This document shows positions 8,937-53,329 of a stretch of 60,162 bases of DNA, one piece after another (position 1 is the first letter of the stretch; each line of letters begins with the position of its first letter). The notes under the pieces are model-generated. The model saw only the letters and a program-made list of their open reading frames with translations, was not told the origin of the DNA and searched no databases. Made by a program: the position numbers and the translations under genes. The stretch spans positions 1 to 60,162 of the IMG/VR virus record IMGVR_UViG_3300042879_001019; one strand, written 5' to 3'. This DNA comes from a virus (Duplodnaviria; Caudoviricetes).

Positions 8937-8964
8937 GAGGCACTTATTATAAGTGCCTTTTTTT
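8937..8964 (+). terminator. Rho-independent terminator
   Basis: GAGGCACTTA-T-TATAAGTGCCTT followed by a T run. Confidence 0.8.
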
Positions 8965-8980
8965 ATTTATCTTTGTAAGT

Positions 8981-9694: not shown

Positions 9695-9697
9695 TAA

Positions 9698-14649: not shown

Positions 14650-14658
14650 TTTTGTGAT

Positions 14659-15675: not shown

Positions 15676-15683
15676 ATTTGTGT

Positions 15684-16085
15684 ATGGAAGTTCGATTCTT
15701 AAATGATGACGATTATAAAACATTGTCATCATGGTGGAAAGATTGGAGATGGACACCACCACCAATTGATATGTTGCCACAAAATGGTAAAGGCGGTGTG
15801 ATGGTTTTCAAGGATGGTGTTGAGATATGTGCTGGATTTGTTTACTTTACTAATTCAAAAACAGCATGGATAGAGTTTATAGTATCAAACTTTCACTATA
15901 GAGAAGATGACAGGCATGAAGCTCTTGAATTTCTTATAAATGTGTTAACTGAAATCATTAAGGAGACTGGTGACTTTAAATACATTTATACATCTTTAAA
16001 GAGCAAAAGTCTAGTTGATAGATACAGCAATTGTGGGTTTCAAAAGGGAGATGGCAATTGTCAGGAAATGGTTAAAATATTATAA
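15684..16085 (+). CDS. Putative GNAT-fold internal virion protein
   Basis: VRFL..DDY start and YSNCGF end resemble GNAT; same position as T7 gp13 before ejection proteins; ATG at 15684 follows TAAATTTG. Confidence 0.45.
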   Translation: MEVRFLNDDDYKTLSSWWKDWRWTPPPIDMLPQNGKGGVMVFKDGVEICAGFVYFTNSKTAWIEFIVSNFHYREDDRHEALEFLINVLTEIIKETGDFKYIYTSLKSKSLVDRYSNCGFQKGDGNCQEMVKIL

Positions 16086-16086
16086 C

Positions 16087-16812
16087 ATGGCAGCAGTAAC
16101 AAGTACAATAGTAGCTTTAGGTGGTTTAGGATTGAGCGCGGCTCAAGCAATTAAGGCCAATAAAGACATGAAGCAGGCAGCGCAAGCGGCTGACAAAGCG
16201 CAAGCTGAATTAAAAAACATCAAAGAGTTTAACGCATTTAAGCAAGTTCAAGTTCCTACCTTGGGATTTGAGTTGGCTCAACAAGGACAAGCTCAAGCGG
16301 CAACACAAGCGATGCAGTCATTGCAAGGCGCAGGTGCTGAGGGTGTTATTGGTGGAGTAGGAAATGTGTTGCAAGCTACAGGTGAGCAAAATTTAGCTTT
16401 AGCAGCGCAAGCAAATCAAGCCCAATATCAAAGAGATATGGCACAAGCTGAAGCAGAGCAAGGAATTCAAGCTAGAAAGCAAGAGCGTGAATTTATGATA
16501 GGGACTAATCAACTCATAAGCGAACAAATGCGAAGAGCTGACGCTGAGAATAGACGTAATAAAGCCATTCAAGGTATGTTCGGTTCTGCTGGAACTGCAT
16601 TAACTAGTGCTGCTGGATTAGTTCCTTTATATGGACAATCAGGTTCAGCAAGCACAGGAGGAATAAACTGGAATTCAATGTCTAATCAACAACTTCCTGC
16701 TGGAGTTAATCCTGTAATACAAGGTCAGCAATACATTACTGGAAACACAATAAATCAATCAACAGCTGATGCTTTAACTGGTAATTTACCTGGACAAGTA
16801 ATATTTAAATAA
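16087..16812 (+). CDS. Putative ejection (pilot) protein
   Basis: Gly/Ala/Gln-rich with hydrophobic N-terminus MAAVTSTIVALGGLGLSAAQ; likely start ATG 16087. Confidence 0.55.
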   Translation: MAAVTSTIVALGGLGLSAAQAIKANKDMKQAAQAADKAQAELKNIKEFNAFKQVQVPTLGFELAQQGQAQAATQAMQSLQGAGAEGVIGGVGNVLQATGEQNLALAAQANQAQYQRDMAQAEAEQGIQARKQEREFMIGTNQLISEQMRRADAENRRNKAIQGMFGSAGTALTSAAGLVPLYGQSGSASTGGINWNSMSNQQLPAGVNPVIQGQQYITGNTINQSTADALTGNLPGQVIFK

Positions 16813-16814
16813 AA

Positions 16815-18359
16815 ATGGCAAGCAGATACAACGAATATACAGGATTTATACCAGCCGATAACCCAATTGATTGGGCTACACTCACTGGTGGATTAGTTAA
16901 GACCATTACAGGTATTGGTGAATCAAGAGAGGCTGAACGTCAGGCTCTTGACAAATTGGCTACGGATAACGCAGAGATTATTCAAAATACAGAACTAGGT
17001 AAAACTCAAACTTTCGATCAGCTGGTATTAGCTGGATCAGATAAGGCTAGAAATAAAATATTTGATTGGAATAAAAAATTAAAATCTGGAGAACTCAAAC
17101 CTGCTCAATATAAAAACTTGATAAATAATCTAAAAACCTCTTGGTCTACATTTGCTAATACCACAAAAACATTTGATGCTCAAATACAAGAAGCATTAAA
17201 AAGACAACAAGAAGGAAAGGGTTCAGCTTTTGAGTTGAGTAATAATAATAGAATTGCTGAATTAGCTAATCTAAGAAACAAAATAACTGATATCGATGAC
17301 TCTAATGGAAATTTTATAATTGGAGAGTTAGGTAGCAATGGATTATTTGACCCATCAAGTATTATGGATTTACGAGCTATTGGTAAGCCTGGGAACATAC
17401 TTGACGATAGAATTGATTTAGATGCCATAGTTGATGAAAAGACAAAAGGAATAGCTTCTTGGCTTGAAGAAGAAGGAAGAAAAACTACAACTGATCCACT
17501 ATTAAACCCAGCTGTAGAACGCATGATGTTTGATTTAAGTAAAGCTATATTAAACAATCCTAGAGCAATTGCAGGTGTTTTAACTGATAACACTGATGGT
17601 GATTATGATTTTTATTATAGCGATAAAGAATTAAATGCTAAAATAGAAGATAGAGTAGCTAAAGAAAACCAATTTAGGACTCAATATAACAAACCTACTT
17701 TAAGTGGCGATGAATTAACTAAATTCATTAATGACCAGAAAGATAAAATGATATTTTCGGCTCAAGATGAACAAGGTGTATATCAACCTATCCTAACAAA
17801 TAGTCAAGTTAAAAAAGCAAATGATGCTACAATAGATAGGATAAAATCAAGACTAGAGAGAAAGGTTGAGTTTGACGAACCGTATCGCGGTGGCGGCGGC
17901 GGTGGCGGTGGCGGTAGCTCTACCAAAACTGATGATTTTGCTGTGTCTGCATATATAACAGCAAACAAGGCATTAGAACAAGGCGATTTTTCAAATCTAG
18001 ATAACAATAAATATAATTTCAGTGAAGGAACTGACTCAAGTGGCAAGAAATATGTATTGGTTTCAGCTAGAGCTTATGATAAAAGAAGCGGAACTTATTC
18101 AAACGATCCAAAAGCTAAAAAGATAAGAGTATATTCTGCTGATGGTTTAGCTCAATATATTAAAGGAATGGACAAACAAAAAGGTTTACATGTTTCTATA
18201 TATAATAGGGGTAAAGACGATTACATAAAACTAAATAATACAAAACTCGAAGGTAGTTATGAAATACCAACAGCATCAAGGGCAGAATGGAAAAAGTCAG
18301 GTTGGACAGATGCTCAAATAAATCAAGCAGTAAAAGAAGGAAAAATTAAAGTAATATAA
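16815..18359 (+). CDS. Putative internal virion / ejection protein
   Basis: 514 aa between pilot protein and giant protein; poly-Gly linker near 17890. Confidence 0.5.
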   Translation: MASRYNEYTGFIPADNPIDWATLTGGLVKTITGIGESREAERQALDKLATDNAEIIQNTELGKTQTFDQLVLAGSDKARNKIFDWNKKLKSGELKPAQYKNLINNLKTSWSTFANTTKTFDAQIQEALKRQQEGKGSAFELSNNNRIAELANLRNKITDIDDSNGNFIIGELGSNGLFDPSSIMDLRAIGKPGNILDDRIDLDAIVDEKTKGIASWLEEEGRKTTTDPLLNPAVERMMFDLSKAILNNPRAIAGVLTDNTDGDYDFYYSDKELNAKIEDRVAKENQFRTQYNKPTLSGDELTKFINDQKDKMIFSAQDEQGVYQPILTNSQVKKANDATIDRIKSRLERKVEFDEPYRGGGGGGGGGSSTKTDDFAVSAYITANKALEQGDFSNLDNNKYNFSEGTDSSGKKYVLVSARAYDKRSGTYSNDPKAKKIRVYSADGLAQYIKGMDKQKGLHVSIYNRGKDDYIKLNNTKLEGSYEIPTASRAEWKKSGWTDAQINQAVKEGKIKVI

Positions 18360-18360
18360 C

Positions 18361-21300
18361 ATGCCAAATAATTTACCGTCACCAAATCAGATACTAGGAA
18401 ACAATTCTAGAACACCAAATCAACAGGTTGAAAACAATTCTAACTTACCAACTCCTGATGAAGTTTTAGGAAAATCTGCATTAAAAAAAAAAGAGGTTTC
18501 ACAATCAACACAAGACGATGGAGTTACTTCTTTGGATGGATCAAACAAGGAGAAAAAGAAGCAATCGGTATCTTCAAATCAGCAAGGTAAATACTCTCTG
18601 CCTGGTGAATATTTAGATTATCCTGGTAAAGGTATTCGTAGATACTATAATGGTAAGTGGTATGATTATAGTTTTACCGAAACGAAGAATGGTAAAGACT
18701 TAAGTGTTTATGATGTACAAATTACAGATCCAGTTAGAGTAAATACATTAAATAAAAAATTTAATAAAGTTGGATCTACATCCGAAACGGAAGAAGTGTT
18801 TACTGGTTTTCCAGGGCAAGAAAAAAATGAATATAGAATAATTGAAGACAAGTGGCAAAAAAAAATGCCAGGCATGAATAAATTTAGGATTGTTACTAAT
18901 GAAGGATCTATACAATCATTAAATAAGGAATTCAATAAAAATGTATCAATACCATCTAATCTAGAAGATTTAAAGAAAAAGCAAGATCAAGAAATACAAA
19001 GTGATAAAAAATTAAACTCTTCATTGACTTGGGTTAATTCTGGGTTGATAGGATCTGAAGAAGAAAATGCATCCAAAATACTTAAGCAAAAATTCCCTGG
19101 TTTTGAATTTATAAAACAAGGTCCTTTAACAGATGAGTTATTAGTTATTGCTCCAAATGGTGCTAGAACAAATATAAGTTTAGATAATTGGACAGATGAA
19201 GATGACAGAAATCAAAGTGTAGTACTAAGAGAATTTATAAGAAATAACTCAGATCAAGATTTAGCAAAAACAGCAAAAGAATTAAGTTTAAAAGAATCTC
19301 AAGAAAGAACATTCTTGGAAGATAAAAAGAAACAAAGTTTAGAAGCTGGTATTTTATCACAAGATTGGAAATTTGAAAATGGCAAGTTAACTATAGAAAC
19401 ACCACTAGACAAAGCAAAGAAATCTGAAGAGTTTAAAAGAATTCAATCTGAAACAAAAACTGCCAGAGGAGAATATATGTCTGAAAAAGCAGAACAGTTT
19501 GATGATATCTACTATAGATTTAAAAATAATCCTAATAAGAATGATGAAATGATTGCTGCGTATGCAAGTGTAAAAGCAGACAAGCAAGAAATATCTAGAG
19601 TTAACAATTATGTCAATGATGTAAAAAATGTAAGCAATGACGTAGCTAAAGAAAAGTTAAATATTGAAAATTATGCTAATGATATAATTTCTAAAGTACA
19701 AAGTGGAGAGATATCACAACAAGAATTTGATGATATTTATAGACCAGAGATAGACCAGAAAACAAATGATTTAAATGAGAAATATAAAAATCTATCAAAT
19801 GATTTAAAAAATATTTCAACAGTTGATAAATCAATAAATGAATCAGTAGGTAAAAATTATTTAATTAAAGAAGCGACAGGTAGTGTAATTGGAGGGGTTA
19901 CATCTAAATTTATAAAAGGATTTACATATTTACCAAGACTTGCTTCTATGGGCGAGATGTCATCAGCAGATCAAGAGGAAATAGTAAATTTAATTACTGG
20001 TGGAGGTACTACAAAAGAGTACATGGAATCTGAAAAAAGAAATGATCTTACTAAGGCATTATTTAGTATGTCAGAATCTGTTGGTATCCTTACATCAAGT
20101 TCATTATTAGGAGGTGGCGCAGCTGCTTATCCATCTTTCTATGCTCAGTCATATTATGAGATGAAGGATGAATTAGATAAGATTGAAGGAATGAGCGAAA
20201 AAGAAAAAGTTTTGTTATCTGGATCTTATGGTGTTGTTAGTTCACTTCTAGAAAAATTTGGTATTGATTCCGCTATGCAGAAAACAGCAGTAGGTAAAAA
20301 TCTTACTAATAGTATAATGAAATCTGCTTTTTCTGATTTACCAAAAAATGCATCTAAGGAGTTTATTGATGCTGCTATAATGAACAGCTTTAAAAAATAT
20401 GTTGTTAAATCAGGAGTTCAAGCAGCAATTGGTGCAGGAACAGAGGGGATAACAGAAGCATTGCAGAATTTATCTGGTGTTGCTATTAAAGAAGTTTACG
20501 ATCAAGCAAAAGGAACTGAATACTTTAATAATAAGTCAGCGTGGAATATATTAGGTGATGCTGTTTATGAAGGCTATCTAGGTGCTTTAGGAGGTGGAAT
20601 TATGTCAACTGTAACTAGTTCAAAAGATATAGTTGCTAGAGGACTTAGAGCTACATTGAATAAAGAACAAATAGATGCATTAATAAATTCAGCAAAAGTT
20701 GATGGAGTAAATGAAGCCTTAATTACAAATTTAAAATCAAGTATATTAACTGGTAAAATGACAAAAGATGAGGCCAAAGAAATAAGCGAATCTTTTAACT
20801 TAGTGAAATCAAAACTGGAATCATTGCCAGAAGATATGTCTAATGAAGATAAATCTGTATCTTTAGATTTATTAATAGAAAGAGACAAATTACAAAAAGA
20901 AAGTTCTAGATTAGATGAAGCATTAAGAGCTCCATATAACGAGAGAATAACAGAGATAAATAATGAACTATTAAAAATATCAGAAAATGCCGTTCAAAAG
21001 CAAACAACAGGTGAAGTTCCTGTACAGCCAGAAGCCACAATTGGCGGAGAAATGGAGGAAGGAAAGCCCCAAGCAGAACCTCAAGGCGTTACCGAAGAAG
21101 GTCAAGTCGCTGCCAAAGAAGAAGTAGATCAGTATATTGCTAATATGGGGGCAGAAGCTCGTATTGGCTCAACCATTAATCCTATCATGGATAAGATGTC
21201 AAATGCTGAATATATTAATGACAATGACATTGATAACGCTATTGAGAAAATTTTTAACGAGGTAGATAGTTTAGATAAGTCAGATTATAGTGCTGAGACA

Positions 21301-24300
21301 AAAGCAGCTTTATCTGAAAAACTTTTAAATATTGCCGAAAAACTAGACAATTATGAATTTAGAACAAAGACTGAAACTGTCGCAACTACCAAAGCAGGCA
21401 CAGCTACAAGTGCTAGAAGGACTTCTGAAGCAGTCCAAAAAATCACAGCCGAAAAATACTTCAATGGAGTCAATGCCACAGTCAATGGCCAAGAAGTAAC
21501 CCTTGTTGATAGAAATGGGCGTGTAGAAGCAACTATGCCTAATGGTGATGTTGTTGTCTTGGATACTCCAACAATGCAGATAGCTGAAGATGGATTTGAG
21601 TTTGATGATAACGATGCATTAGTTGCGGTTAATATAACAGATCGATTAGGAAACAAGACAAGAATTACTGGAGATCAGGCTCTTGACTTTGCAATTCGTG
21701 ATAGAGAAAATAAGATTGGAGTTGTTGAGCAAGCTGACTTTGATACAGTATATCAAGAAGTAGAAAGAAGGTATGTCAAAGAAGCTCCTAAGAAAAAAGT
21801 AGAGAAGGAAGCACCTGTAATTACTGAAAAAGCTGAACCAGTAGATGTAGAAGATGAGGTAAAAAAATTAGAGGAGTTATTAAAAAGAGATGATCCTAAC
21901 TTCCAACTTGACTCTGAGATAACTCAAGAAGAAAAGAAGGAAGAACTTGTATCTAAGGCTATAGAAAAGATGTCCGAATCAGATATAAATGATATATCTG
22001 AAGAAGCATTTGATGCTGAGTTTCCTACACCTGATGTAAAGACATATGCTATTGAAGTAAAAGAAAATTCAGAGCTAGCTAATAAGTTAAAACGAATGGG
22101 TTTAAAAGACTTAATTGGTAAGAAGATAAACTTAGTAATGGCTGATCAACTTAAAGTTGGAGAAGTAATGGGCAAGAAAAGAATGGGCGGTCCATTCTTC
22201 CCATTAATTGATAAACTTTTCGGCAAAGTTGCATGGGCTTCTATTAATAAGACAGCTGCAAAAGCAATAGTTAATGGAGCTATAAAGTCTGATTATACGG
22301 TTGTGTATAATATGAATCCATCTGCAATAGATTCAAATGCTGCTATAACAGAAACATTTGAAGATTTAATGCAATCATTACCGAAGAATAAACAAAAAGC
22401 AATATTCACTGCTATTCAAGAACAAGTACTAAAAAATAAGTACGCTAATAAGACAGATCAAGTAAGAGCTATAGCTAAATCATCAAAGACATTAAGTGAG
22501 TTCTTTACTGAGTTAGATAAGTTAGATGTTGATACAATATCGGCTGTAGTTAAGAATATAATGCCATCAAGAGATGTTGATGCAGGTACAAAAATAGGAA
22601 AGCTTTTACAGAACGAAGGAATAACTATAGAGACTATTCGTGAAATGAATGTAGAGCAGTTCGCATCTGAATTACCTGCTGGTGCATTGACAATGGTATT
22701 AGAAGTTACAGATAAAGCAGGCAATAAGGTAACAGCAAAAACAGCTGATGAAGCAATAATTACTCCAGAACAACAAGATGAAGAGGGATTACCTAAACAT
22801 AATAACTATCCAATATATGTAAGAGGAAAGGCTGTCGCTATGCTTAATGAAACTGTCCCTTTTTGGAACATATTAAAAGAGTCTATAAATAATATAAATG
22901 TAAAGGTAGCTGGAATTGTAAGAGAAAAATCTGGAAGAAGATTAACATCAAAAGAAGCAATTTCAAACGAGATGAGAAGTGCTTCAATGACTGCTAGTGT
23001 AGCTAAGAAAGCAATAGAAAAAACAAATACACAGTATAACAGATTCTTATCAACAATCGCTAGATCATTTCCAAATGTAGAGGTAGTGGCATCTCAGGAA
23101 GAGTTTGATGCATTACTAAAAGACTTAAATACTAAGAAGTTATCTACAAAGAATGCTAAAGTATATGGTGCTGTTTATAAAGGCAAATTATATTTGAATC
23201 CATCACTAGAAAACTATAATACACCAGTACATGAGTTTGGTCACGTATGGATAAATACTGCTAAGGTTGCATCTAAACAACTATATAGTAAGGGTATATC
23301 ATTAGTTAAAGGTACTGAGTACGAAAATAACGTAAGAGAAAATAAGGAGTACCAAAGAGTCATAAAACAAATGAAGGCAGATGGTGCTTCAGATGTAGAT
23401 ATAGATAACTACATATATGAAGAGGCATTGGCCACTGCTATTGGAGATAAGGGAGAGTCATTTGTTACAGCGTCACAGAGATTAGACTTTAAGAACTGGA
23501 TGAGAAAACTATTCTCATTTGTTAAGTCCATGACAGGTATATCTAAGTACAGTGCTGAGCAATTAGAAGATATCAATTTAGATGAGTTTGTTCAAGCTGT
23601 GTCTATAGATATAATGTCTGGCACAGAACTATTTAAAGGTGTAAAGACAAATATATCTGATGCTCTTCAGTTAATGACAAATGGAAGTAAGAGTATAGAG
23701 TATATTATGTCTGTAGCCAGAGACAATGGTATATCAGATGCAGGTATAAAGAAATATTTGACGAATCAAGGATTCAGTGAGCAAGCTATAAATGATGCAT
23801 TTAAAGCACAACCTAAAGCTCCGTCAGTTGCTAAGGTATTAGGTAAGCCAAAACCAAAACAGGTAACTGTTAATGAGATGTCAGCACTTAAAGATCAGAT
23901 TAGATTTGAAGCAAAAGCTGCTCGTGATGCTAAGGGTGACTTGAATACTAAAAGAAGAGCTCTTGCTGATGCTATTGGTGGTATGGTTAAGACTGGCAAA
24001 ATTAAAGCTCCTCAGGCTGCTACACTCGTTAACAGAATAAGCAATCTTAACTTAGATAATCCAGTAATGGTTGAGCGATTCGTCAACTATGCTGAGAGAG
24101 TCTTTGAGAGAGCTGAATATCAAGAAACACTAAATAAAGCATTTGAAACAAGAAAGTCCATCCGTAAAGCATTAAAGACTGACAACCAGCCTGAGGTAGT
24201 GGGTATGGCCAAGGAGTTTACAAAGATTGATCCATCAATGGTTGAGGACATAGATGCTTATATTGAAATGGCTGAAAAAGTTAAAAATGCTGTTAAGCCA

Positions 24301-27300
24301 TCTGTTGCAAAAATACCTAATCCTATTCTTAAACAAGCAGCTAATATTGCTGATATTTCTGAATATTCTAAAAAAGAAATCGAACGTCAAGAACAAATTA
24401 AGGCAGATGAATTTTTTGCTGCTTATAATGAAGTTGAAGGCTTGTCAAAAGACATGTCTTTAAAAGAAATGAAAGACATAATAAACTCATTGAAAGAAGA
24501 TCCAGAAGCTGAGCCTAATAAGCAAGAAAAAGTAATGGAGTTCCTGAAAGAAAAAATGTCAGAAATGTCAGATACTTTGAAGTCAATGTTCAAAACAGGC
24601 ATTGATCCAATGACTGGTGAAAAAATTACATTTGATGAAAAACAAAAAGAACTAATCAAGCGAGCATTAAAGATTGACCTTAATGAAATTTCAATCAGAG
24701 AGGCGATTAAGATAGTTGAAAGTATTGATAATTTCTTAACCAATCAGATAACAAGTGGACTTGAGGCAGCTGTTAGTTCTTATGAAGGAGCAATGAATGA
24801 TAAGCAGTTAGTTCAAAAAGGTTTTAAGGCTAAAAGTCTAAAATTCTTGAGAAGCGGAAAAATAGGAAGAGGATACACTGAGCAACTGTTCTCACTTCCA
24901 CTTATGATTGAAAAAATGTTTGGTGGTATAAACAGATCAGTCGAAGTAATGAATAAGTGGGGATTAAGTAAATTAATTAATGGTGTAAATAAAGCCAATA
25001 AGCAATTCAGTACCATTGTTGATTCATATACAAAACAACCATTTTATTCTACAAAAAATTCCCTTGGGGTCTATGTTATGAATAAAGGATTTATGGATGC
25101 TAAAAATGTATATGAAAGAGGTATGCTTGCATTCTTGAAAAGAAATCTGATTGGAACTCAAGCTGAAATGAAAGCAGAATTTGAGAGAAGAACTAGAATG
25201 ATAAAAGAATCAATCGATGTTCTAATTCAAGATGGAAACTCCAAAGAGAAGAAAATGGGTGAATTGTATAAAGAAATATATGACAAACTAAATATTGCAT
25301 CAATGGACATGGATGTAATTAATTCCAATGCATCAAAAAATAATTTAGATGCTATTAATTGGTGGGTAAATCAATGGTCGAAACATTACTCAGATTTATC
25401 TGACATAAGTTTGTCTGTATATAATACTCAGCTTGGAAGTGACTTAAACTATACACCTGATAAGTACAAAAAACTATCTTCAGAAAAAGTAAAATTTGAT
25501 AAAGAAGCAGTAGAGAGGAATGGATCTTTTGCTATATCTATTGATTATACTGACAAAAATAAATCAGGTGTATTAATAGAATCAACTAGACCAGGCGCAT
25601 TGCCAAATGGCAGATATGTAAGTCTTGATTTTGATACTAATAATGCAAAAGCATTAAAGTCTGCACTAACTGATATCAATACTGCTTCAGCTATTAGACA
25701 GATTGATGGATTCATGAGTTCTAATTCATTCAAGCAATTAATTCCTGATTCAGATGATAGAAAAATAATTACTAGAAGAATCAATACGTATATAAGAAGA
25801 GCGAAAGGTAAAAATATTGTGCCATCTGATACAATGCAAGATGTTGAGAGATTTGGAAACTTTATAACTGCTCTTGGTGTAGGTAAGGCATTAGGAGGTG
25901 TAAGTCAAGCTGTAACTCAGACAGTACCAGTTATGCTTAACACTGTTGTAAATGCAGGTCGATTTGATGTTGCTGGCGCTGAATTTAACGCATGGTTAGA
26001 TGATTTAGGCGTGTCTACGTCAAATCGTGGATTAGAATCACAATCAACAGTTGAATCAATTGATAGACAACTAGAAGCGTCAAATGGTAATACACAAAAA
26101 ATAATAAAAGGAGTTGAAAATTTAAGTCAATTTTATTTAAAGCAATTTCTTTCAAGACCAGATATATTTGTCGCTAGATCTTCATTTAAGTCATACTACT
26201 TGCAAAACTTAAAGCGTAGAGGAATAAGTACAGATATTGATTGGAAGACACACAAACCAGACATGGAGGCTGTTGAATATGCAGAAGCAATGGTTAATAG
26301 ACAGCAGAACGTATCTGATCCATTGTTGGCAGGTGAATTTTTAGCTAGCGATGAACCTATGCGAAAAATAAGTAGAAAGGCTGCATTTCCATTTGCTTCA
26401 TTTATTTTAAATCAAAAAGCAAGGATGTACAATGACTTTAGTACATTGGCTAGTGCTACTTCAACAAATGAAGATAAAATAGCAGCAGGTAGATCTTTGG
26501 CAGGTCTTGCAGTTGAATTACTTGCATTTCAATTAATTGGTTTCGGAATAAGAAGATTATATGATTCAATTGCAGCTTCATTACTTGGGGATGACGAAGA
26601 GGAAGAAAAAAATAAGAAAATATTCGGTATTAAAATGACTTCAAGAATGTACAACGCTACTAAATATCCAATTAAAAATATTTTTAATGATATTGTATCG
26701 CCTTTTCCTGGAATGACTGATAAATATGTAACATGGGGCTTGAATGAGGCATTATCTTATTATCCTTGGATGGATAATAAAGAAGTAAAAGATGCTGTAA
26801 AAGAAAGAAATAGAATACTAGAGCTAAAAGGTGAAGATCCAATGGATGCTAAAACTGAAGCTGAATTTATCAAGAATGTGAAAGATGAAGCAACATACCA
26901 ATTATTTGAAGATGAGAATGATAGAAGTGGAGGTATGTACGGGATAGCTTCAGCTACATATAACGAACTATTTGATATTTCAAAATTATCTATAACAGGT
27001 GAATTCATTGATGATTATCAAGGTAGAGAAACCACTAAAAGACTTTTAGAGTCTGATCGCGAAAAAGTAAAATACGCTGTTCCTTTTATGATAGCTTACT
27101 CAACTGGATTATTACCTAAAGATGTAGGAACTATTAGCAATAACTACATAAAAAGAATAAAGAAACAAGCCGTTACTGAAAAACAATACGACAGATACGA
27201 TGCTGTACAGAAAGACCTTGGGCGTAATCTAAAATCTTGGGAAATACAATTGGTGAAAGATAAGAAGGAATCCGAAACAGCCATTTCCGAAATAGAGTTT

Positions 27301-27435
27301 ATCGAACGAAATGGTGGATTGACAGAACGTCAAGGAAGAGAGTACTTAAAAATTATGAAGGCTATAGGTGAGCCAACTGTTTCAGATATAGTGAAAATTA
27401 AGGAAGGTCAGACAGCTGATCAGATTTTAAAATAA
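18361..27435 (+). CDS. Giant internal virion protein (3024 aa) with a zincin-like metallopeptidase motif
   Basis: HEFGH at 23230-23244 with downstream EEALA; hydrophobic Gly/Ala segments; ends the structural operon. Confidence 0.65.
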   Translation: MPNNLPSPNQILGNNSRTPNQQVENNSNLPTPDEVLGKSALKKKEVSQSTQDDGVTSLDGSNKEKKKQSVSSNQQGKYSLPGEYLDYPGKGIRRYYNGKWYDYSFTETKNGKDLSVYDVQITDPVRVNTLNKKFNKVGSTSETEEVFTGFPGQEKNEYRIIEDKWQKKMPGMNKFRIVTNEGSIQSLNKEFNKNVSIPSNLEDLKKKQDQEIQSDKKLNSSLTWVNSGLIGSEEENASKILKQKFPGFEFIKQGPLTDELLVIAPNGARTNISLDNWTDEDDRNQSVVLREFIRNNSDQDLAKTAKELSLKESQERTFLEDKKKQSLEAGILSQDWKFENGKLTIETPLDKAKKSEEFKRIQSETKTARGEYMSEKAEQFDDIYYRFKNNPNKNDEMIAAYASVKADKQEISRVNNYVNDVKNVSNDVAKEKLNIENYANDIISKVQSGEISQQEFDDIYRPEIDQKTNDLNEKYKNLSNDLKNISTVDKSINESVGKNYLIKEATGSVIGGVTSKFIKGFTYLPRLASMGEMSSADQEEIVNLITGGGTTKEYMESEKRNDLTKALFSMSESVGILTSSSLLGGGAAAYPSFYAQSYYEMKDELDKIEGMSEKEKVLLSGSYGVVSSLLEKFGIDSAMQKTAVGKNLTNSIMKSAFSDLPKNASKEFIDAAIMNSFKKYVVKSGVQAAIGAGTEGITEALQNLSGVAIKEVYDQAKGTEYFNNKSAWNILGDAVYEGYLGALGGGIMSTVTSSKDIVARGLRATLNKEQIDALINSAKVDGVNEALITNLKSSILTGKMTKDEAKEISESFNLVKSKLESLPEDMSNEDKSVSLDLLIERDKLQKESSRLDEALRAPYNERITEINNELLKISENAVQKQTTGEVPVQPEATIGGEMEEGKPQAEPQGVTEEGQVAAKEEVDQYIANMGAEARIGSTINPIMDKMSNAEYINDNDIDNAIEKIFNEVDSLDKSDYSAETKAALSEKLLNIAEKLDNYEFRTKTETVATTKAGTATSARRTSEAVQKITAEKYFNGVNATVNGQEVTLVDRNGRVEATMPNGDVVVLDTPTMQIAEDGFEFDDNDALVAVNITDRLGNKTRITGDQALDFAIRDRENKIGVVEQADFDTVYQEVERRYVKEAPKKKVEKEAPVITEKAEPVDVEDEVKKLEELLKRDDPNFQLDSEITQEEKKEELVSKAIEKMSESDINDISEEAFDAEFPTPDVKTYAIEVKENSELANKLKRMGLKDLIGKKINLVMADQLKVGEVMGKKRMGGPFFPLIDKLFGKVAWASINKTAAKAIVNGAIKSDYTVVYNMNPSAIDSNAAITETFEDLMQSLPKNKQKAIFTAIQEQVLKNKYANKTDQVRAIAKSSKTLSEFFTELDKLDVDTISAVVKNIMPSRDVDAGTKIGKLLQNEGITIETIREMNVEQFASELPAGALTMVLEVTDKAGNKVTAKTADEAIITPEQQDEEGLPKHNNYPIYVRGKAVAMLNETVPFWNILKESINNINVKVAGIVREKSGRRLTSKEAISNEMRSASMTASVAKKAIEKTNTQYNRFLSTIARSFPNVEVVASQEEFDALLKDLNTKKLSTKNAKVYGAVYKGKLYLNPSLENYNTPVHEFGHVWINTAKVASKQLYSKGISLVKGTEYENNVRENKEYQRVIKQMKADGASDVDIDNYIYEEALATAIGDKGESFVTASQRLDFKNWMRKLFSFVKSMTGISKYSAEQLEDINLDEFVQAVSIDIMSGTELFKGVKTNISDALQLMTNGSKSIEYIMSVARDNGISDAGIKKYLTNQGFSEQAINDAFKAQPKAPSVAKVLGKPKPKQVTVNEMSALKDQIRFEAKAARDAKGDLNTKRRALADAIGGMVKTGKIKAPQAATLVNRISNLNLDNPVMVERFVNYAERVFERAEYQETLNKAFETRKSIRKALKTDNQPEVVGMAKEFTKIDPSMVEDIDAYIEMAEKVKNAVKPSVAKIPNPILKQAANIADISEYSKKEIERQEQIKADEFFAAYNEVEGLSKDMSLKEMKDIINSLKEDPEAEPNKQEKVMEFLKEKMSEMSDTLKSMFKTGIDPMTGEKITFDEKQKELIKRALKIDLNEISIREAIKIVESIDNFLTNQITSGLEAAVSSYEGAMNDKQLVQKGFKAKSLKFLRSGKIGRGYTEQLFSLPLMIEKMFGGINRSVEVMNKWGLSKLINGVNKANKQFSTIVDSYTKQPFYSTKNSLGVYVMNKGFMDAKNVYERGMLAFLKRNLIGTQAEMKAEFERRTRMIKESIDVLIQDGNSKEKKMGELYKEIYDKLNIASMDMDVINSNASKNNLDAINWWVNQWSKHYSDLSDISLSVYNTQLGSDLNYTPDKYKKLSSEKVKFDKEAVERNGSFAISIDYTDKNKSGVLIESTRPGALPNGRYVSLDFDTNNAKALKSALTDINTASAIRQIDGFMSSNSFKQLIPDSDDRKIITRRINTYIRRAKGKNIVPSDTMQDVERFGNFITALGVGKALGGVSQAVTQTVPVMLNTVVNAGRFDVAGAEFNAWLDDLGVSTSNRGLESQSTVESIDRQLEASNGNTQKIIKGVENLSQFYLKQFLSRPDIFVARSSFKSYYLQNLKRRGISTDIDWKTHKPDMEAVEYAEAMVNRQQNVSDPLLAGEFLASDEPMRKISRKAAFPFASFILNQKARMYNDFSTLASATSTNEDKIAAGRSLAGLAVELLAFQLIGFGIRRLYDSIAASLLGDDEEEEKNKKIFGIKMTSRMYNATKYPIKNIFNDIVSPFPGMTDKYVTWGLNEALSYYPWMDNKEVKDAVKERNRILELKGEDPMDAKTEAEFIKNVKDEATYQLFEDENDRSGGMYGIASATYNELFDISKLSITGEFIDDYQGRETTKRLLESDREKVKYAVPFMIAYSTGLLPKDVGTISNNYIKRIKKQAVTEKQYDRYDAVQKDLGRNLKSWEIQLVKDKKESETAISEIEFIERNGGLTERQGREYLKIMKAIGEPTVSDIVKIKEGQTADQILK
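20987..21127 (+). CDS. Nested +1-frame small basic protein MPFKSKQQVKFLYSQKPQLAEKWRKESPKQNLKALPKKVKSLPKKK (46 aa)
   Basis: Complete ATG..TAG frame inside the giant gene; A-rich upstream sequence; resembles small basic MPFKS-type phage proteins (from memory). Confidence 0.5.
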   Translation: MPFKSKQQVKFLYSQKPQLAEKWRKESPKQNLKALPKKVKSLPKKK

Positions 27436-47811: not shown

Positions 47812-47867
47812 GGTTAATATGCCGTATCACTACGGCATTTCGTCTATTTAAGACTCATCAGTTAACC
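47812..47867 (-). ncRNA. Hammerhead ribozyme, type I (AUA cleavage triplet)
   Basis: GGUUAA-CUGAUGA-GUCU(UAAAU)AGAC-GAAA-UGCCGUA(GUGA)UACGGCA-UA-UUAACC; complete core and three stems. Confidence 0.92.
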
Positions 47868-48100
47868 TGTTTTAAAAGTTTTTCGTATTTCTTTGGCAAT
47901 TTGTTATACATTCTTATTGTATGTCCACTACTCCAATGATTCAAGAATACTTCCTGTATTATGGTTGATTTTAATCCGTTACCTATACAAATTGTCGTTC
48001 CGTAGCCTAAACATCCCTCAATGACTTCTATTATTTCGCCATCTTTTTTAATGTAGTTATCAATTACATCTTGAACTACTTTGTTTGTGTATATTTTCAT
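47858..48100 (-). CDS. Early-region hypothetical protein
   Basis: Its TGA stop is part of the ribozyme CUGAUGA. Confidence 0.6.
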   Translation of the reverse strand: MKIYTNKVVQDVIDNYIKKDGEIIEVIEGCLGYGTTICIGNGLKSTIIQEVFLNHWSSGHTIRMYNKLPKKYEKLLKQVN

Positions 48101-48765: not shown

Positions 48766-49016
48766 GATAATTTGTATTTTCTTTTTAAAAATTGTATTTG
48801 ATTGTATTCCTTTTCTGAATAACTTACAGGATGTAATTCAACTTCGTTTATGTTGAAGTCTATTAATCTATTTTCATGTTTAATTGTTACTCTAGTTGTA
48901 ACTATTTCATGAGCGCAAAATTTTTGATTAATAAAACCATATGCTTTGTTAGTTATTCTTACAGACATATCGAATCCATCGAAAAAGTCTAAAATTATTT
49001 GATTTCTAGATTTCAT
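48762..49016 (-). CDS. Early-region hypothetical protein
   Basis: TAGTC-ATG start. Confidence 0.55.
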   Translation of the reverse strand: MKSRNQIILDFFDGFDMSVRITNKAYGFINQKFCAHEIVTTRVTIKHENRLIDFNINEVELHPVSYSEKEYNQIQFLKRKYKLS

Positions 49017-49018
49017 GA

Positions 49019-49129
49019 CTATCTATTGTTAAATGGTATTAATACTTTTCTTGTTTTAATTAACGTTCCGTTTAAAAAGAATCCCCAAATTTCGAAACGT
49101 CCATCAATCTTTAAAATTTTTGTTGACAT
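49019..49129 (-). CDS. Small protein (36 aa, MSTKILKIDGRFEIWGFFLNG...)
   Basis: TAGCC-ATG start 22 nt after the predicted ribozyme cleavage site. Confidence 0.5.
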   Translation of the reverse strand: MSTKILKIDGRFEIWGFFLNGTLIKTRKVLIPFNNR

Positions 49130-49145
49130 GGCTAAAAATTTAATT

Positions 49146-49200
49146 GGTTAAGACGTGACTAAACGTCACGTTTCGTCTATTTAAGACTCTTCAGTTAACC
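49146..49200 (-). ncRNA. Hammerhead ribozyme, type I (GUC cleavage triplet)
   Basis: GGUUAA-CUGAAGA-GUCU(UAAAU)AGAC-GAAA-CGUGAC(GUUUA)GUCACG-UC-UUAACC. Confidence 0.93.
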
Positions 49201-49377
49201 TTTTTTAATCGAGAATAAAATGCTTGATAACATCGCAATTGCGCCACATCCGTAGAATAGTGTAGCAATCAAATACTCATGTTGAATCATCAAGCTTTCA
49301 TTGTTAAAACTAACAATTGGTGTAGCGATTGCCGTACTACCGAATGCAATCATCATTACTAAAAACATTGTTTTCAT
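49195..49377 (-). CDS. Small two-TM membrane protein, first early ORF
   Basis: TAGCC-ATG start; TAA stop inside ribozyme stem I. Confidence 0.55.
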   Translation of the reverse strand: MKTMFLVMMIAFGSTAIATPIVSFNNESLMIQHEYLIATLFYGCGAIAMLSSILFSIKKG

Positions 49378-49395
49378 GGCTATTGGTTTATTTGG

Positions 49396-49700
49396 TTAGT
49401 GCTTGCCGTTCGTATCGCTCGAATAAAATTGTCATTCAATCGGCAAGCTATTTTATTTCCATAACATTTCGGGTAGTTCAATTCCCTAGGTAGTTCGATA
49501 CTAAGAACTATTATCGTATCTGTTATTATAGTTTAACTTGCACCACGCTTATATAGATGGAATCGAACCACCACAAGTTATTAAAGTATTGTTATTCCCT
49601 CCCATGCTTGCAAAAGGGTAGTTTAATGATTATTTCTAATCTTTCATCTTTGGTGTTACCTCAGATAAAGCATGTTACAAGATGTCAAAGAACTAAATTT
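49396..49700 (-). ncRNA. Structured early leader with tRNA-like elements
   Basis: GCTTGCCG/CGGCAAGC with TTCG(AGCGATA)CGAA then ACTA; T-arm GGTGG-TTCGATT-CCATC; GATTA-GAAA-TAATC hairpin. Confidence 0.5.
49683..49694 (-). promoter_or_regulatory. boxA-like antitermination element AGTTCTTTGACA
   Basis: Resembles rrn boxA (E. coli TGCTCTTTAACA); lies near the 5' end of the early leader. Confidence 0.55.
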
Positions 49701-49853
49701 GCAAACTATTTAAACTAATCTACTTTAAACCACTATCTGAATTGTTTATCCTCGAAAGGCAATCTATTTAGTTTTATTGTTTCAATCTACTTCAGCAATC
49801 TAATCTCATCAATCGTACATCTGAAATATTGTTTTTAGCTCGTTTGCTTATTG

Positions 49854-49883
49854 TAAAGGTAGGCACATAATCGGGATTGTCAA
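49854..49883 (-). promoter_or_regulatory. Candidate strong early promoter
   Basis: TTGACA-N16-TACCTTTA with an A-tract upstream. Confidence 0.45.
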
Positions 49884-49899
49884 CAATTTTTTATTGAAA

Positions 49900-50460
49900 G
49901 ATTAGCAAAATACGTATTTACACTTAGAAACGTCTACGTAGTTTCACTTAGCTAAGACGGATGCCGTGACTGATTAAGTTAGCTAAATGCTTGTAAATCA
50001 ATGCTTTACGATAATTAAATATATTTTGCATGAAATACGTTTTTAAATTGCGAAATGAATTGAGGCTTAACCCACTCAATCCAAACGCGTGAAGATGTAT
50101 GCATATTTGGATGCATAACGTATTGATTGTCAGTCACGTAGGTAGGTCGATTGGTCGATTGGTCCGTTGGTCTATTTAACATAATGGATATTATATTACA
50201 GATTGGTTTGTTGGTAGGCTGTATGTATTGGTATCAATAAAGGTATGTAGGTCAACAGATAGATGTCAACAGACGGCAAGCATATAGGCACATCGGTTAA
50301 TGTCATAGGCACATAGGCACATTGCTAGGCAAAAAGCTGAAAATCCCCAACCAATTTGCCGAAATGAATACCCCCCAGTCAATTTTCAAACCGTTTCCCC
50401 CGAGCGGACTTTTTCGCGGAATGGGGGTATTACCCAAAAATTCCGCATATCTAACAAAAA
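49900..50460. other. Divergent non-coding region with short repeats, candidate genome end or packaging region
   Basis: GGTCGATT-like x3-4; TAGGCA(C) x4; inverted repeat AATACCCCC/GGGGGTATT; IHF-like sites. Confidence 0.4.
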
Positions 50461-50476
50461 ATAATTATATTTGCGT

Positions 50477-50614
50477 ATGAATATAATCGTTGAGAATTTA
50501 CTTAGGGTTGGTCTATTGGTAGGTTTCGAGTACTATGGTCCTGACGAGGAGTTTGACTTCAATGAGCTGCAGATCAGTTTATTAATTTTAAGATTGACAT
50601 TTATATGGCACTGA
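50477..50614 (+). CDS. Small hypothetical protein (45 aa)
   Basis: ATG 3 nt after TATATTTG. Confidence 0.55.
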   Translation: MNIIVENLLRVGLLVGFEYYGPDEEFDFNELQISLLILRLTFIWH

Positions 50615-51696
50615 TGAGAACAAGTAGGAACGGTGAAGATCCTAAGAAGAAGAAATCCACATGGGAAGATGTTGCAAAGAATGAAGAGATCAAGGCTTCA
50701 AACAAGGCTGCTCAAGATAAGTATAAGTCTGAGAGTGATGTTTACGAGAAGCAGGTCAAGGCATACGCTAGTCAGCCAAAAAATAGGGACTTAAAGTCAC
50801 ACTTCCAAGGTGGCGGCAGGTATTTATCTCCTAGTGAGCTTGACGTGTGGAACAAGGACATGGAGGCAAGTGGTTTAGCTAAGGAGCGTGGTGGTTTAAA
50901 GGCTAATAAGGTTTATGTTACTAAGGACTTTGGCAAGGAGGGGTCTGTCAGCAGTTTGAAGACTGCTACTGGCAAGTCTTACTCTGGTGGCATGGGATCT
51001 TTTCATGAGTGGTTGGATAAGCCAACTAAGAAGCCTTCACCAACTCCACCAATTTCTGAGATAGAAATTAAGAAGACAGACTTGAGTGTAGGCAATCTAC
51101 CTACTAGAAAGCCAGGAAAGATAGCTGCTAAGACAACTGGCCCATTGCGGATGAGTGAGAGATCTGAAGAGGAGACACCATTTGTAAAACCAGCAAGAAC
51201 TTTAGTTGGCCCGTTAGTAAAAAGTTTCTATACTCAAGATGGCGGAGTTAAAAAGGAGAACAAGCCAATTGCTAGAGCCGTTGAGAATGTAAAGAGAAAG
51301 GTTCAGTATGCTAAGGAGGGTAAGCAGTTTAAGGCTTACTATGGTGCTCCTTCTAGTATAAGTGCATCTGACAGGGCTGGCATGACAGCCGATCAGTTGG
51401 GCAAGGAGAGAGCTTCGTTGATGGGAGTAAAGAGAGAGTTGAAGTCTGATATTAAGAAGCCAGGCGGTATTATTTCAAGAAGTGAGATAAGATCTGAGCT
51501 TAAGAACGTTAAGAAGGACATCAGATCAATTGGCAAGGCACAGAAGTATGCAGCTGGCAATATTGAAGCCAGGAGTGTTCAAGAGAATGGCAAAGAAAAG
51601 ATTATAATGGTTTCTAAGAAGAATGGATCTGCGAAATCTTTCAAGCCTGAGCTTGGTGAAAGGTACACTGCCTACAGTAAAAAGAAAAATAAATAA
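50605..51696 (+). CDS. Basic Lys-rich hypothetical protein
   Basis: 363-aa ORF followed by a terminator. Confidence 0.6.
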   Translation: MALMRTSRNGEDPKKKKSTWEDVAKNEEIKASNKAAQDKYKSESDVYEKQVKAYASQPKNRDLKSHFQGGGRYLSPSELDVWNKDMEASGLAKERGGLKANKVYVTKDFGKEGSVSSLKTATGKSYSGGMGSFHEWLDKPTKKPSPTPPISEIEIKKTDLSVGNLPTRKPGKIAAKTTGPLRMSERSEEETPFVKPARTLVGPLVKSFYTQDGGVKKENKPIARAVENVKRKVQYAKEGKQFKAYYGAPSSISASDRAGMTADQLGKERASLMGVKRELKSDIKKPGGIISRSEIRSELKNVKKDIRSIGKAQKYAAGNIEARSVQENGKEKIIMVSKKNGSAKSFKPELGERYTAYSKKKNK

Positions 51697-51772: not shown

Positions 51773-53329
51773 ATGATAGTAAAACAGGTACATTTTGGCG
51801 ATGAAGGCCAAAAAAAGCTCAAGAAGGGCATCAAAACGATAGCAGGAGCTGTCAAAAGTACGTTAGGGGCGCGAGGTCGCACTGTACTAATTGAATCAGA
51901 GAACCATATTGGTGGTATGACGGTAACGAAGGATGGTGTTACTGTCGCTAAGTCGATCAACTTGTATGATCCGACTGAGAATTTGGCTGTTATGATGATG
52001 CGTCAGGCGGCAGAGCGAACGGCAACTGTTGCTGGTGATGGAACGACAACAAGCATTGTGTTAGCTGAGGCTATTATTGATGCATCTGACAAGTACTTGT
52101 CGGAGACAGACAACGTAACTGAGGTGATACGTGAGATCAATCAGATAGCTGGGCAAGTTGTTGCGCAACTTGACAAGAAGTCCAAGAAGTTATCAGGTAA
52201 GAAGTTGGTTGACGTGGCAACTATTAGTGCTAACAATGACAGGGAGGTAGGCAAGATGATTGCTGATGCTTTTGGGGAGGTTGACATGGTGACAGTTGAG
52301 AACAGCCAGACGACAAGTACGTATGTTGAGATAATTAAAGGTATGAAGATTGATAGGGGCTATGCCTCTAGAGTGTTCATCAATGACTTCAAGAAGCAGG
52401 AGTGTGTGTTAGACAATCCGTACATTTTGATCAGTGATCATGAGATAAATAATATTATGAATTTGGAGCGTATACTAGTACCAATTGTTGCTCAAGGTAA
52501 ATCGTTGCTTATTATTGGTGAGTTAGGTCAGAACGCATTGAATACTTTGAATGCTAACGTTGCGGCACAGAAGCTTAAGGCATGTGCTATTATGCCACCG
52601 TCGTTTGGCTACCGTAAGAAAGACTTGCTAGAGGACTTGGCAGTCGCTTTGGGAGGTGTGTATTTCTCTGAGGACACTGGTGATGATTTGTCGTTGATAG
52701 ACTTAGACAGTTTGGGTAGAGCTTCAAAGGTTATTGTTAGCAACAACATGACGGTATTCATGCATAGTGAGTCGAGAGAAGAGCATATCAACCAAAGGGT
52801 AGATGAGCTAAAAGACATGCGTGATACAGCGACAAAGGATGAGGACAAGAGCTTCTTGAACGAGCGTATTGCCAACTTGTCTGGTGGCGTTGGTGTCATC
52901 TATGTAGGGGCATTGAGTGACATTGAGCAGAAGGAGAAGAAGGATAGGATTGACGATGCTGTGTGTGCTGTTCAGGCTGCTTTGGAGGATGGTATATTGC
53001 CTGGTGGTGGTGTGGCGTTGTTGGATGCGAGCATATCTACTGATTATTCAAGTACTGCTGCTGCTATAATGATTGATGCGCTAGAAGCACCATTTAGACA
53101 GATTGTCACAAATGCTGGTAAGAATTGTGACGAGATATTATTTAACAGACCTGATGGATGTGGCTATGACGTGAAGGGCGAGCAGTATGGTGACATGGTT
53201 AAGTTGGGAATTATTGATCCGACAAAAGTTACTAAGAACGCTTTATTGAACGCTGTGTCTGTTGCAACGACAATCATGAGTACGAATGCTATTATCACAA
53301 ACGTAAGAGACTATGAAGGTTCTAAATAA
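51773..53329 (+). CDS. groEL: Chaperonin GroEL (phage-encoded)
   Basis: VTKDGVTVAK, GDGTTT, ERIANLSGGV, EKKDRIDDA, GILPGGG, GIIDPTKV. Confidence 0.97.
   Translation: MIVKQVHFGDEGQKKLKKGIKTIAGAVKSTLGARGRTVLIESENHIGGMTVTKDGVTVAKSINLYDPTENLAVMMMRQAAERTATVAGDGTTTSIVLAEAIIDASDKYLSETDNVTEVIREINQIAGQVVAQLDKKSKKLSGKKLVDVATISANNDREVGKMIADAFGEVDMVTVENSQTTSTYVEIIKGMKIDRGYASRVFINDFKKQECVLDNPYILISDHEINNIMNLERILVPIVAQGKSLLIIGELGQNALNTLNANVAAQKLKACAIMPPSFGYRKKDLLEDLAVALGGVYFSEDTGDDLSLIDLDSLGRASKVIVSNNMTVFMHSESREEHINQRVDELKDMRDTATKDEDKSFLNERIANLSGGVGVIYVGALSDIEQKEKKDRIDDAVCAVQAALEDGILPGGGVALLDASISTDYSSTAAAIMIDALEAPFRQIVTNAGKNCDEILFNRPDGCGYDVKGEQYGDMVKLGIIDPTKVTKNALLNAVSVATTIMSTNAIITNVRDYEGSK

Follow-up and report, generated by a model that had tools for sequence, protein, structure and literature searches.

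A phage early leader carrying two covarying tRNA-like folds and a boxA-like word, with likeness to host rRNA and tRNA operon signals

Introduction

boxA is the NusB/NusE site in the leaders of ribosomal RNA (rRNA) operons, here called rrn leaders, and it also occurs in the nut sites of lambdoid phages. In MALAT1, RNase P cuts on the 5' side and RNase Z on the 3' side of mascRNA, and the upstream RNA keeps a structured, protected 3' end. According to PMC11143913, RNase P cleaves hairpins composed of an acceptor stem, a T stem and a T loop, measures 12 base pairs (bp) from the T loop and stacks on the elbow of transfer RNA (tRNA); the same source adds that some phage RNAs and messenger RNAs (mRNAs) are also processed. 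Here we describe the early-operon untranslated leader of the virus record IMGVR_UViG_3300042879_001019 (Duplodnaviria; Caudoviricetes), in which a boxA-like word and two tRNA-like folds, element 1 and element 2, precede the first gene. The window is the whole virus record (60,162 bp, 99% complete), and the leader spans 49883-49393 on its minus strand, ~470 nucleotides (nt).

In the 5' to 3' direction the leader opens with the promoter and the start motif, continues with a UUCG mini-hairpin, boxA and a structured stretch that varies among relatives, and closes with element 1, element 2, the tail and the ATG; element 1 occurs in part of the phage group only. Comparison of relatives shows that these folds and motifs are genuine, are maintained by selection and resemble those of tRNA or of rrn operons. 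The reading that we prefer, at a probability of roughly 0.55, is that the early leader copies signals of host rRNA and tRNA operons, with boxA loading Nus factors and with RNase P and RNase Z cutting a tRNA mimic.

Results

Comparison with about 110 related leaders supports both folds by covariation. The main features are as follows.

49534-49580, minus strand: element 1, tRNA elbow mimic of 47 nt (covariation)
49400-49448, minus strand: element 2, anticodon-less tRNA-like fold (covariation)
49378-49399, minus strand: tail CUAACCAAAUAAACCAAUAGCC up to the ATG (invariant columns)
49683-49694, minus strand: boxA-like AGUUCUUUGACA, with the core GUUCUUUGA at 49693-49685 (relatives and rrn leaders)

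The relatives came from a GroEL protein scan of IMG/VR (116 relatives, 80 loci retained), a DNA pattern for the T-arm element (62 viral contigs matched, ~30 of them true instances) and a scan of metagenomes for element 1 (95 contigs); a 363-amino-acid neighbour protein used as query found no related loci. When 49195-50604 (minus strand) was compared with the 80 loci by blastn, short islands persisted where the flanks had diverged beyond recognition, namely 49536-49578 (85-98% identical), 49351-49451 and 49828-49865. Because some motif positions were prescribed by the collecting patterns, those positions look more invariant than they are; covariance searches nonetheless turned up no diverged copies of either element, barring one weak hit in the relative L042. 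Shuffle counts are not probabilities, since related sequences share ancestry, and the weight rests on slid controls and on the number of independent compensatory changes. Folding of the single leader sequence was uninformative (z = -2.4).

Element 2 consists of an acceptor-like stem (49448-49441/49408-49401, 7-8 bp among relatives), a D-like hairpin (49440-49428, 4 bp with the 5-nt loop AAUGA) and a T-like hairpin (49423-49409, 4 bp with the 7-nt loop AGCGAUA) whose 3' strand continues into the acceptor-like 3' strand. A tertiary pair, G49433:C49417, joins the two loops, and A49400 occupies the discriminator position. Across 58 distinct sequences, 99.8% of the cells are paired, compared with 74.8% in shuffles, and 15 of 16 pairs show changes on both sides; no shuffle out of 500 did as well, slid controls reached 20-57%, and helices 1 and 3 are 100% paired. 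The pair between the D and T loops is G:C in 52 sequences, A:U in 6 and unpaired in none, the six A:U cases coming from at least three stem backgrounds (L024/L209, L173/L210 and L199/L225). Several tRNA hallmarks accompany this architecture: G1-C72 (54/58), a G-C pair closing the 7-nt loop (55/58), the discriminator A, and, within the loop, C as the third base, a purine as the fourth and, as the fifth, an invariant A equivalent to A58. With contiguous 3' strands, the acceptor-like and T-like helices stack to 7-8 plus 4 bp, that is 11-12 bp, in keeping with a length of about 12 bp.

Helix length is preserved across variants of element 2 in which parts have changed. In L011 it is a plain hairpin of 11-12 bp; L037 and L095, one lineage, carry the canonical T arm GGGUUCGAUUCCC and a GG-containing linker; L096 has 8+4 bp with the loop UUCGUUA, and a 6+6 form is also found. 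A covariance model recovered element 2 once each in 46 of 83 sources, making it more widespread than element 1, and it is present as a single copy per locus at a constant place and strand. In most relatives it follows element 1 after ~10-17 nt. Behind the discriminator, CUAAC is invariant in all 58 sequences, and an ATG stands ~20-27 nt further on although the first protein differs (49377 in the window). The tail holds a single G (49380) and no Shine-Dalgarno sequence. Pairing of the CUAAC tail with the D-like hairpin was considered and rejected, as it is not conserved in the window or in L012.

Element 1 has an outer stem (49580-49573/49541-49534, strands UAACUUGU and GCAAGUUA) enclosing a T arm, GGUGG-UUCGAUU-CCAUC, with the T stem at 49572-49568/49560-49556 and the T loop UUCGAUU at 49567-49561. 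A 14-nt joining strand, UAUAUAAGCGUGGU (49555-49542), leads back to the outer stem and supplies the G of the tertiary pair C49565:G49543. In an alignment of 30 sequences (26 distinct rows) both stems covary, with 95.9% of the cells paired compared with 80.2% in shuffles, changes on both sides at 9 of 14 pairs, 0 of 500 shuffles as good and slid controls at 40-50%. The T stem takes the forms GGUGG/CCAUC, GGUAG/CUACC, GAGGG/CCCUC, GUAGG/CCUAC and others, and the outer stem ACUUG/CAAGU, CCUUG/CAAGG, GUUUG/CAAAC, GGAUG/CAUCC and AGAUUG/CAAUCU. With the metagenome loci included, there are 61 distinct 53-mers and 12 T-stem variants, every one of which is complementary.

The loop and the joining strand of element 1 are almost invariant and change together: UUCGAUU always accompanies ...GGUG and UUUGAUU always ...GAUG. 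The resulting pair is C:G in 56 cases, U:A in 5 and mismatched in none (the search pattern permitted all four combinations), and the outer stems that go with the U:A form are of at least three backgrounds (the L004 group, L065 and L096). This pair behaves like tRNA G19:C56, and the invariant G preceding it would act as G18. A covarying tertiary Watson-Crick pair of this kind is present in both elements, which suggests that each forms an elbow. The strand order of element 1 is a D-stem-like 5' strand, one U, the T arm, the GG-bearing joining strand and a D-stem-like 3' strand; it would thus be a T arm inserted in a D arm, an elbow devoid of acceptor and anticodon stems whose fit to tRNA geometry we infer. 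G-U pairs in element 1 (U11-G43 in 26/26 rows, G13-U27 in 11) fit an RNA transcribed from the minus strand. Its covariance model found it once each in 22 of 81 sources, on a constant strand relative to GroEL; the sole extra hit is the weak one in L042, on the plus strand (E = 0.68). The element 1 pattern had 0 matches in 185,579 species genomes.

Three other explanations of element 1 were discarded. An attP or tRNA-gene remnant does not agree with flanks that are invariant while the stems covary, nor with absence from bacterial genomes; a switch between GGUGG/CCAUC and CCAUC/GGUG fails where the alternative pairing is lost (L069 and L039); and a permuted or normal tRNA around the T arm finds no matching acceptor strand. 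As a separate observation, the word (A/C)ACCAAAG at 49651-49644 recurs upstream of element 1 in many relatives and resembles the element 2 tail CUAACCAA.

These comparisons bear on a sequence-only reading of the window, which had described tRNA mimics behind a boxA and had proposed structural conservation in relatives as a check. Covariation was found for both elements, and both mimics are real tRNA-like folds. The canonical T arm GGTGG-TTCGATT-CCATC inside a TAACTTGT/GCAAGTTA stem (49580-49534) is present with both stems covarying, and the 8-bp plus 4-bp element with a 7-nt loop followed by ACTA (49448-49397), ahead of the ATG at 49377, is borne out by very strong covariation. The further proposal of a 12-bp acceptor plus T helix, as recognised by RNase P and RNase Z, holds for element 2 (11-12 bp stacked) and fails for element 1, which is an elbow with no acceptor stem.

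Database searches gave no prior family for either fold. An Rfam search of the whole window at gathering thresholds returned nothing, and E-value searches of 48800-50700, 27400-50700 and the L041 leader returned only sub-threshold hammerhead hits and noise; neither element was matched in Rfam in the window at E values up to 10, the tRNA family RF00005 included. ARAGORN, run on the window and on six relatives, reported 0 tRNA or transfer-messenger RNA (tmRNA) genes. Our literature search retrieved no account of a leader of this type.

The boxA-like word follows the predicted promoter and the conserved start motif at a distance of ~156 nt. In a tally of 79 complete, distinct leaders, those of at least 350 nt carry a boxA-like word in 30 of 51 cases, 19 of them exact. 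Its flanks differ among relatives (...GACAUCUUG, ...GACAUAUUGG, ...GACAUACGAU and ...GAUUCUCGGC), and some relatives carry GUUCAUUGA or GGUCUUUGA instead, GUUCAUUGA being a change within the core. Judged by these tallies, boxA is not an obligatory part of the leader design, and its link with leader length may reflect shared ancestry.

A scan of species genomes for the 9-mer GTTCTTTGA at 87-146 nt upstream of the 16S primer site 27F found it, with homologous flanks, in at least 120 genomes. Among the matches listed are many Bacteroidota (Chryseobacterium, Alistipes, Cyclobacteriaceae, Chitinophaga, Spirosoma and others) and some Bacillota and Actinomycetota with their own characteristic flanks, which we take to be the known rrn boxA of those phyla. 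An even sample of one Bacteroidota class, taken around the Chryseobacterium metagenome-assembled genome of L258, comprised 201 genomes; 97 of them have the 9-mer 80-150 nt ahead of 16S (reversed control 0), any genome whose 16S was not assembled being scored as a miss. One match is in the unpublished genome G182, without which the count is 96/200. Identity between phage and host rrn leaders reaches beyond the 9-mer: host-class examples read GTTCTTTGACATATTG and GTTCTTTGACATACTG, and the phage words, GTTCTTTGACATCTTG in the window and GTTCTTTGACATATTGG in L114, are almost the same as these. The phage word also agrees at 10 of 11 positions with GYTCTTTAANA, which PMC5725501 gives as the boxA consensus of gamma-proteobacteria. 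The boxA AGTTCTTTGACA (49694-49683) called by the sequence-only reading is present, recurs in relatives as a conserved word and has the very core of the rrn boxA; the comparison with rrn leaders that had been suggested shows a 9-nt core identical to that of Bacteroidota. As a candidate site, the word matches the boxA of rRNA leaders in the inferred host group.

Upstream and downstream of boxA the leader contains the following features.

49854-49883, minus strand: Bacteroidota-type early promoter, TTG(ACA) at 49883-49878 and -7-like TACCTTTA at 49861-49854 (sequence and relatives)
49838-49849, minus strand: 5'-proximal motif AAGCAAACGAGC (conserved in relatives)
49750-49759, minus strand: CCU-UUCG-AGG mini-hairpin (relatives)
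49449-49533, minus strand: insert of 85 nt between elements 1 and 2 (comparison with L004)

The promoter has 19 nt between TTG and TACCTTTA, which is a 7/8 match to the -7 sequence TAnnTTTG. We take TTTG/TAnnTTTG to be the consensus of Bacteroidota sigma-A promoters. At the homologous place relatives read TAtcTTTG or TAccTTTG, exact matches to TAnnTTTG with TTG 19 nt upstream and AAGCAAACGAGC downstream. In a permissive tally, which takes in a few false anchors, 68 leaders have the start motif; TAnnTTT[GA] lies 2-8 nt upstream of it in 31, and in 28 of these TTG also stands 17-21 nt further upstream; in the short-leader group TAnnTTTG is placed further upstream. By sequence and spacing, this promoter is of the Bacteroidota -33/-7 type. 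A sigma-70 scan did not list the site and found promoter-like sites no more often than in shuffles. Of 30 related leaders, 20 contain the motif AAGCAAACGAGC, and the wider permissive tally puts it in 68 of 113 distinct ones; transcription probably starts at or just before it. Within 50321-50238 and 49886-49862 (minus strand), short repeats surround two promoter-like sites, GTGCCTA(T) four times and GTTGAC three times, and a second TACCTTTA lies at 50245-50238 (minus strand). GTGCCTA occurs in none of the relatives examined, and L041 has other, GGCCTGTC-like repeats at the same place; the GTGCCTA/GTTGAC repeats may be phage-specific operator sites.

The mini-hairpin CCU-UUCG-AGG is kept in L002, L009 and L041, L114 has CUC-UUCG-GAG, and a regular-expression tally counted it in 29 of 68 leaders. 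The 85-nt insert is common to the window and L004 and has no further homologues; its hairpin GAUAC...GUAUC (49520-49497) keeps its pairing through two compensatory double changes relative to L004. The sequence-only reading had named a promoter, a CCT-TTCG-AGG hairpin and several hairpins including a GAAA tetraloop. The promoter is present and has its TAnnTTTG homologue in relatives; the UUCG hairpin exists and is conserved in the three relatives just named, although with 3 bp the evidence for it is weak; for the GAAA tetraloop, in the insert, no stem was found. Relatives without element 1 (L041 at 3420-3600 on the minus strand, L040-L061, L016, L028 and L030) have a conserved, GC-richer and apparently structured domain of ~200 nt between boxA and element 2, which had no Rfam match in the L041 leader.

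The leader lies in a 1.2-kb divergent intergenic region, 5' of the first minus-strand open reading frame (ORF). Two features at this end of the operon complete the list.

49195-49377, minus strand: first early-operon ORF, 60 amino acids, hydrophobic (ORF list, Pfam scan, comparison with relatives)
49147-49217, minus strand: hammerhead-like motif at the end of the first ORF, given for context (Rfam scores under threshold)

Structural genes occupy the plus strand up to 27435, the minus strand carries a long run of small ORFs of which the upstream-most starts at 49377, and plus-strand genes restart at 50605, with a GroEL-like chaperonin at 51773-53329. The first ORF of the early operon (49377-49195) has no Pfam family and is not the same among relatives. 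The hammerhead-like motif scores 26.3 bits with Hammerhead_1 (gathering 34) and 28.8 bits with RAGATH-1-hammerhead (gathering 56.3); as it lies exactly at the end of the first ORF, that ORF would be flanked by a tRNA mimic and a ribozyme. A second such motif at 47813-47883 (minus strand) is also under the Rfam thresholds, and the cores of both read CUGAAGAG...GAAAC...GUC. Outside the leader, two more islands, 50171-50200 and 50330-50473, are conserved in many distant relatives, the latter including a terminator-like plus-strand hairpin at 50391-50407.

When GroEL is compared with GenBank phages, an uncultured podovirus comes nearest (51% identity), followed by phages of Flavobacterium and Bacteroides (~40%). 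The leader DNA (49000-50700) had no GenBank phage match by blastn, and megablast of window positions 1-20000 gave MW202828 as its sole match, at 2%; around the GroEL genes of MW202828 and Flavobacterium phage elemoB, element 2 was not found. Pfam scans of 27 proteins turned up neither an RNA polymerase nor an enzyme of RNA processing or tRNA. The 3024-amino-acid ORF that closes the structural module (18361-27435, plus strand) has no Pfam family, and an N4-like hairpin promoter for this protein was dropped for want of support. From the promoter type, the missing Shine-Dalgarno sequence and the boxA match together we infer a Bacteroidota host. In the candidate host class, 61 genomes were sampled for RNase Z (TIGR02651), and 42 of them score over the cut-off.

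Discussion

In the reading that we prefer, boxA would recruit NusB, NusE (S10) and other Nus factors, and the resulting complex would keep Rho from terminating an early transcript that is long, untranslated and punctuated by ribozymes. G49448 would be the first base after the RNase P cut and A49400 the last before the RNase Z cut, the latter because the next bases are CUA and not CCA; the two sites are the ends of the acceptor-like helix. The released mRNA would start with the invariant CUAACCA, ~22 nt before the ATG. Element 1 would then lie near the 3' end of the released leader RNA and, speculatively, may protect that end or bind an elbow reader. That element 2 has a fixed helix length and element 1 a variable outer stem would be expected if only element 2 were measured. 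The tail A-CUA-ACCA, with no CCA at 74-76, agrees with RNase Z and not with the RCCA contact of RNase P. On this comparative evidence, the first transcript of the phage is probably handled by the host rRNA/tRNA machinery. The rrn-like interpretation that the sequence-only reading had placed on the leader keeps its sequence and structure premises; it has to give up an obligatory boxA and an acceptor/T helix in element 1.

Several findings weigh against such borrowing. For boxA, GTTCTTTGA is no more frequent in the window alone than chance would have it (2 matches, 0.92 expected), the boxA-like word is absent from 21 of the 51 long leaders and occurs in 2 of 28 short ones, both of which (L003 and L236) were clipped by a spurious script anchor, and GTTCTTTGA is the rrn boxA core in Bacillota and Actinomycetota too. 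For element 2, the stacked helix is 11 and not 12 bp in 55 of 58 sequences, the T-like loop AGCGAUA begins with AG and not with UU as in UUCGAUU, and the 3' CCA for the RCCA contact of RNase P is missing. The strict conservation of CUAACCA is not required by RNase Z and suggests a further or different role, for example in translation initiation, where it would head the mature mRNA. Element 1, with an outer stem of 5-8 bp and no acceptor stem, does not fit a measuring nuclease. It is an unlikely substrate of RNase P or RNase Z, being an elbow that lacks an acceptor stem and varies in outer-stem length.

If the tRNA-like folds stayed uncut, they could be structural elements of the 5' untranslated region that stabilise the mRNA or control translation of the first gene, perhaps as a standby platform for the ribosome or S1 with the G-poor tail CUAACCAAU, or by binding a protein of the phage or the host. 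Bacteroidota mRNAs are usually G-poor upstream and have no Shine-Dalgarno sequence. The tail is of just this kind, CUAAC is invariant with the ATG at a near-constant distance in all relatives despite a differing first ORF, and element 2 is linked to the leader and not to a particular gene. A translation platform leaves unexplained, however, why the fold should bear G1-C72, a discriminator A, a helix of 11-12 bp, an A58 equivalent and a G19:C56-like pair, or why some lineages have swapped in a canonical T arm, and we hold it rather unlikely. Less probable again, and quite a long shot, is that one or both mimics act as decoys or sponges for proteins that read tRNA shape, serving early protection or reprogramming and not processing; tRNA-cleaving defence nucleases, T-arm modification enzymes, the S-domain of RNase P and the ribosomal L1 stalk are the targets proposed. 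Decoys for host defence nucleases were the alternative given in the sequence-only reading, and the comparisons speak neither for nor against them. Element 1 is suited to this as a bare elbow whose near-invariant loop and joining strand look like the ligand of an elbow reader, as part of the very first transcript, and through its presence in only 22 of 81 sources, as is often the case for accessory counter-defence functions. One copy per genome on an mRNA leader would limit the dose, and the decoy has no known partner. The anticodon arm, the usual target of known tRNA-cleaving defence nucleases, is missing from both mimics.

The boxA-like word could also be something other than a Nus site, for example a segment that pairs within an RNA helix or that a phage protein binds, its likeness to rrn leaders being convergent or fortuitous. 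Its absence from many relatives, the GUUCAUUGA core change in some of them and its chance-level frequency within the window speak for this; it is nevertheless conserved in at least three different flank contexts, and the identity to host rrn leaders extends past the 9-mer; we regard the idea as unlikely. That the conserved hairpins work as DNA, as a promoter with a hairpin spacer, an operator or an origin, is scarcely credible: element 1 does overlap a sigma-70-like TTGTGG-N17-TATAAG, but the stems contain G-U pairs, which the opposite strand would render as A-C mismatches, the tertiary pairs of the loops covary, and stem sequences vary freely while pairing is kept. To our knowledge, moreover, Bacteroidota, the inferred host group, do not use TTGACA/TATAAT promoters. 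A doubtful extension of host-signal borrowing would make the leader a counterfeit pre-rRNA, with boxA antitermination, RNase P and RNase Z acting via the top half, and a released leader of ~350-400 nt, capped by the elbow, persisting as a stable non-coding RNA that engages an elbow reader. Such an RNA would recruit or titrate its reader, whether the RNase P S-domain, the ribosomal L1 stalk or T-arm enzymes, and a free-standing tRNA elbow of this kind would not have been described before.

The two structured RNA motifs are new to Rfam 15, and their covariation extends to the signature tertiary pair of tRNA. Element 1, a tRNA elbow reduced to the minimum and standing by itself, offers a tool for finding what recognises the shape of tRNA. 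Should the preferred reading be true, a non-lambdoid phage of Bacteroidota, a phylum with atypical transcription and translation signals, would be borrowing the rrn boxA of its host, a possible new case of a known phage strategy, and host tRNA-processing enzymes would cut the early transcript jointly with self-cleaving ribozymes in a largely RNA-encoded programme. The boxA match and the promoter type also help to place an uncultured phage group, widespread in freshwater and marine settings, in a host phylum.

Set beside described systems, the leader shares the 9-nt boxA core of rrn leaders from Bacteroidota and other phyla, and like the nut sites of lambda it has a phage as its user and places the word in a long untranslated leader past the promoter. 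It differs in that no N-like protein or boxB partner was identified here and in that the word occurs in only ~60% of the long related leaders, its Nus role being putative. mascRNA (RF01684) is alike as a tRNA-like fold that lacks a functional anticodon arm inside a longer transcript; here, however, the setting is a bacterial phage, and the downstream product would be an mRNA. No mascRNA-menRNA match (RF01684) was found in the window, and the L095 variant scored 18.8 bits with that family (E 0.48; gathering 42.5), below what assignment takes. tmRNA (RF00023) likewise combines an acceptor stem, a T arm and a D-loop substitute and lacks an anticodon arm. Element 2 departs from it in having no G3:U70 (the third acceptor pair, column 16-60, is U-A in 57 of 58 sequences), no CCA end and no tag reading frame; L095 reached 16.7 bits with tmRNA, below the gathering score of 47, and covered only the two ends of the model. 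These weak matches of L095 would fit the description of a tRNA top half, not membership of the tmRNA or mascRNA families.

Non-tRNA substrates of RNase P (model hairpins, the C4 RNA of P1/P7, the M3 RNA of phi80 and plant-virus tRNA-like structures) resemble element 2 in having a stacked helix of ~12 bp capped by a T-like loop, as given in PMC11143913; they usually have a 3' RCCA, unlike the phage tail ACUAACCA, next to which cleavage is predicted. From tRNA (RF00005) both elements differ in having no anticodon arm, so that neither alignment forms a complete cloverleaf, and element 1 further lacks an acceptor stem and has its strands in permuted order; what they share with it is the G53-C61 closing pair, C56, R57, A58, a G19:C56-type pair, G1-C72 and A73.

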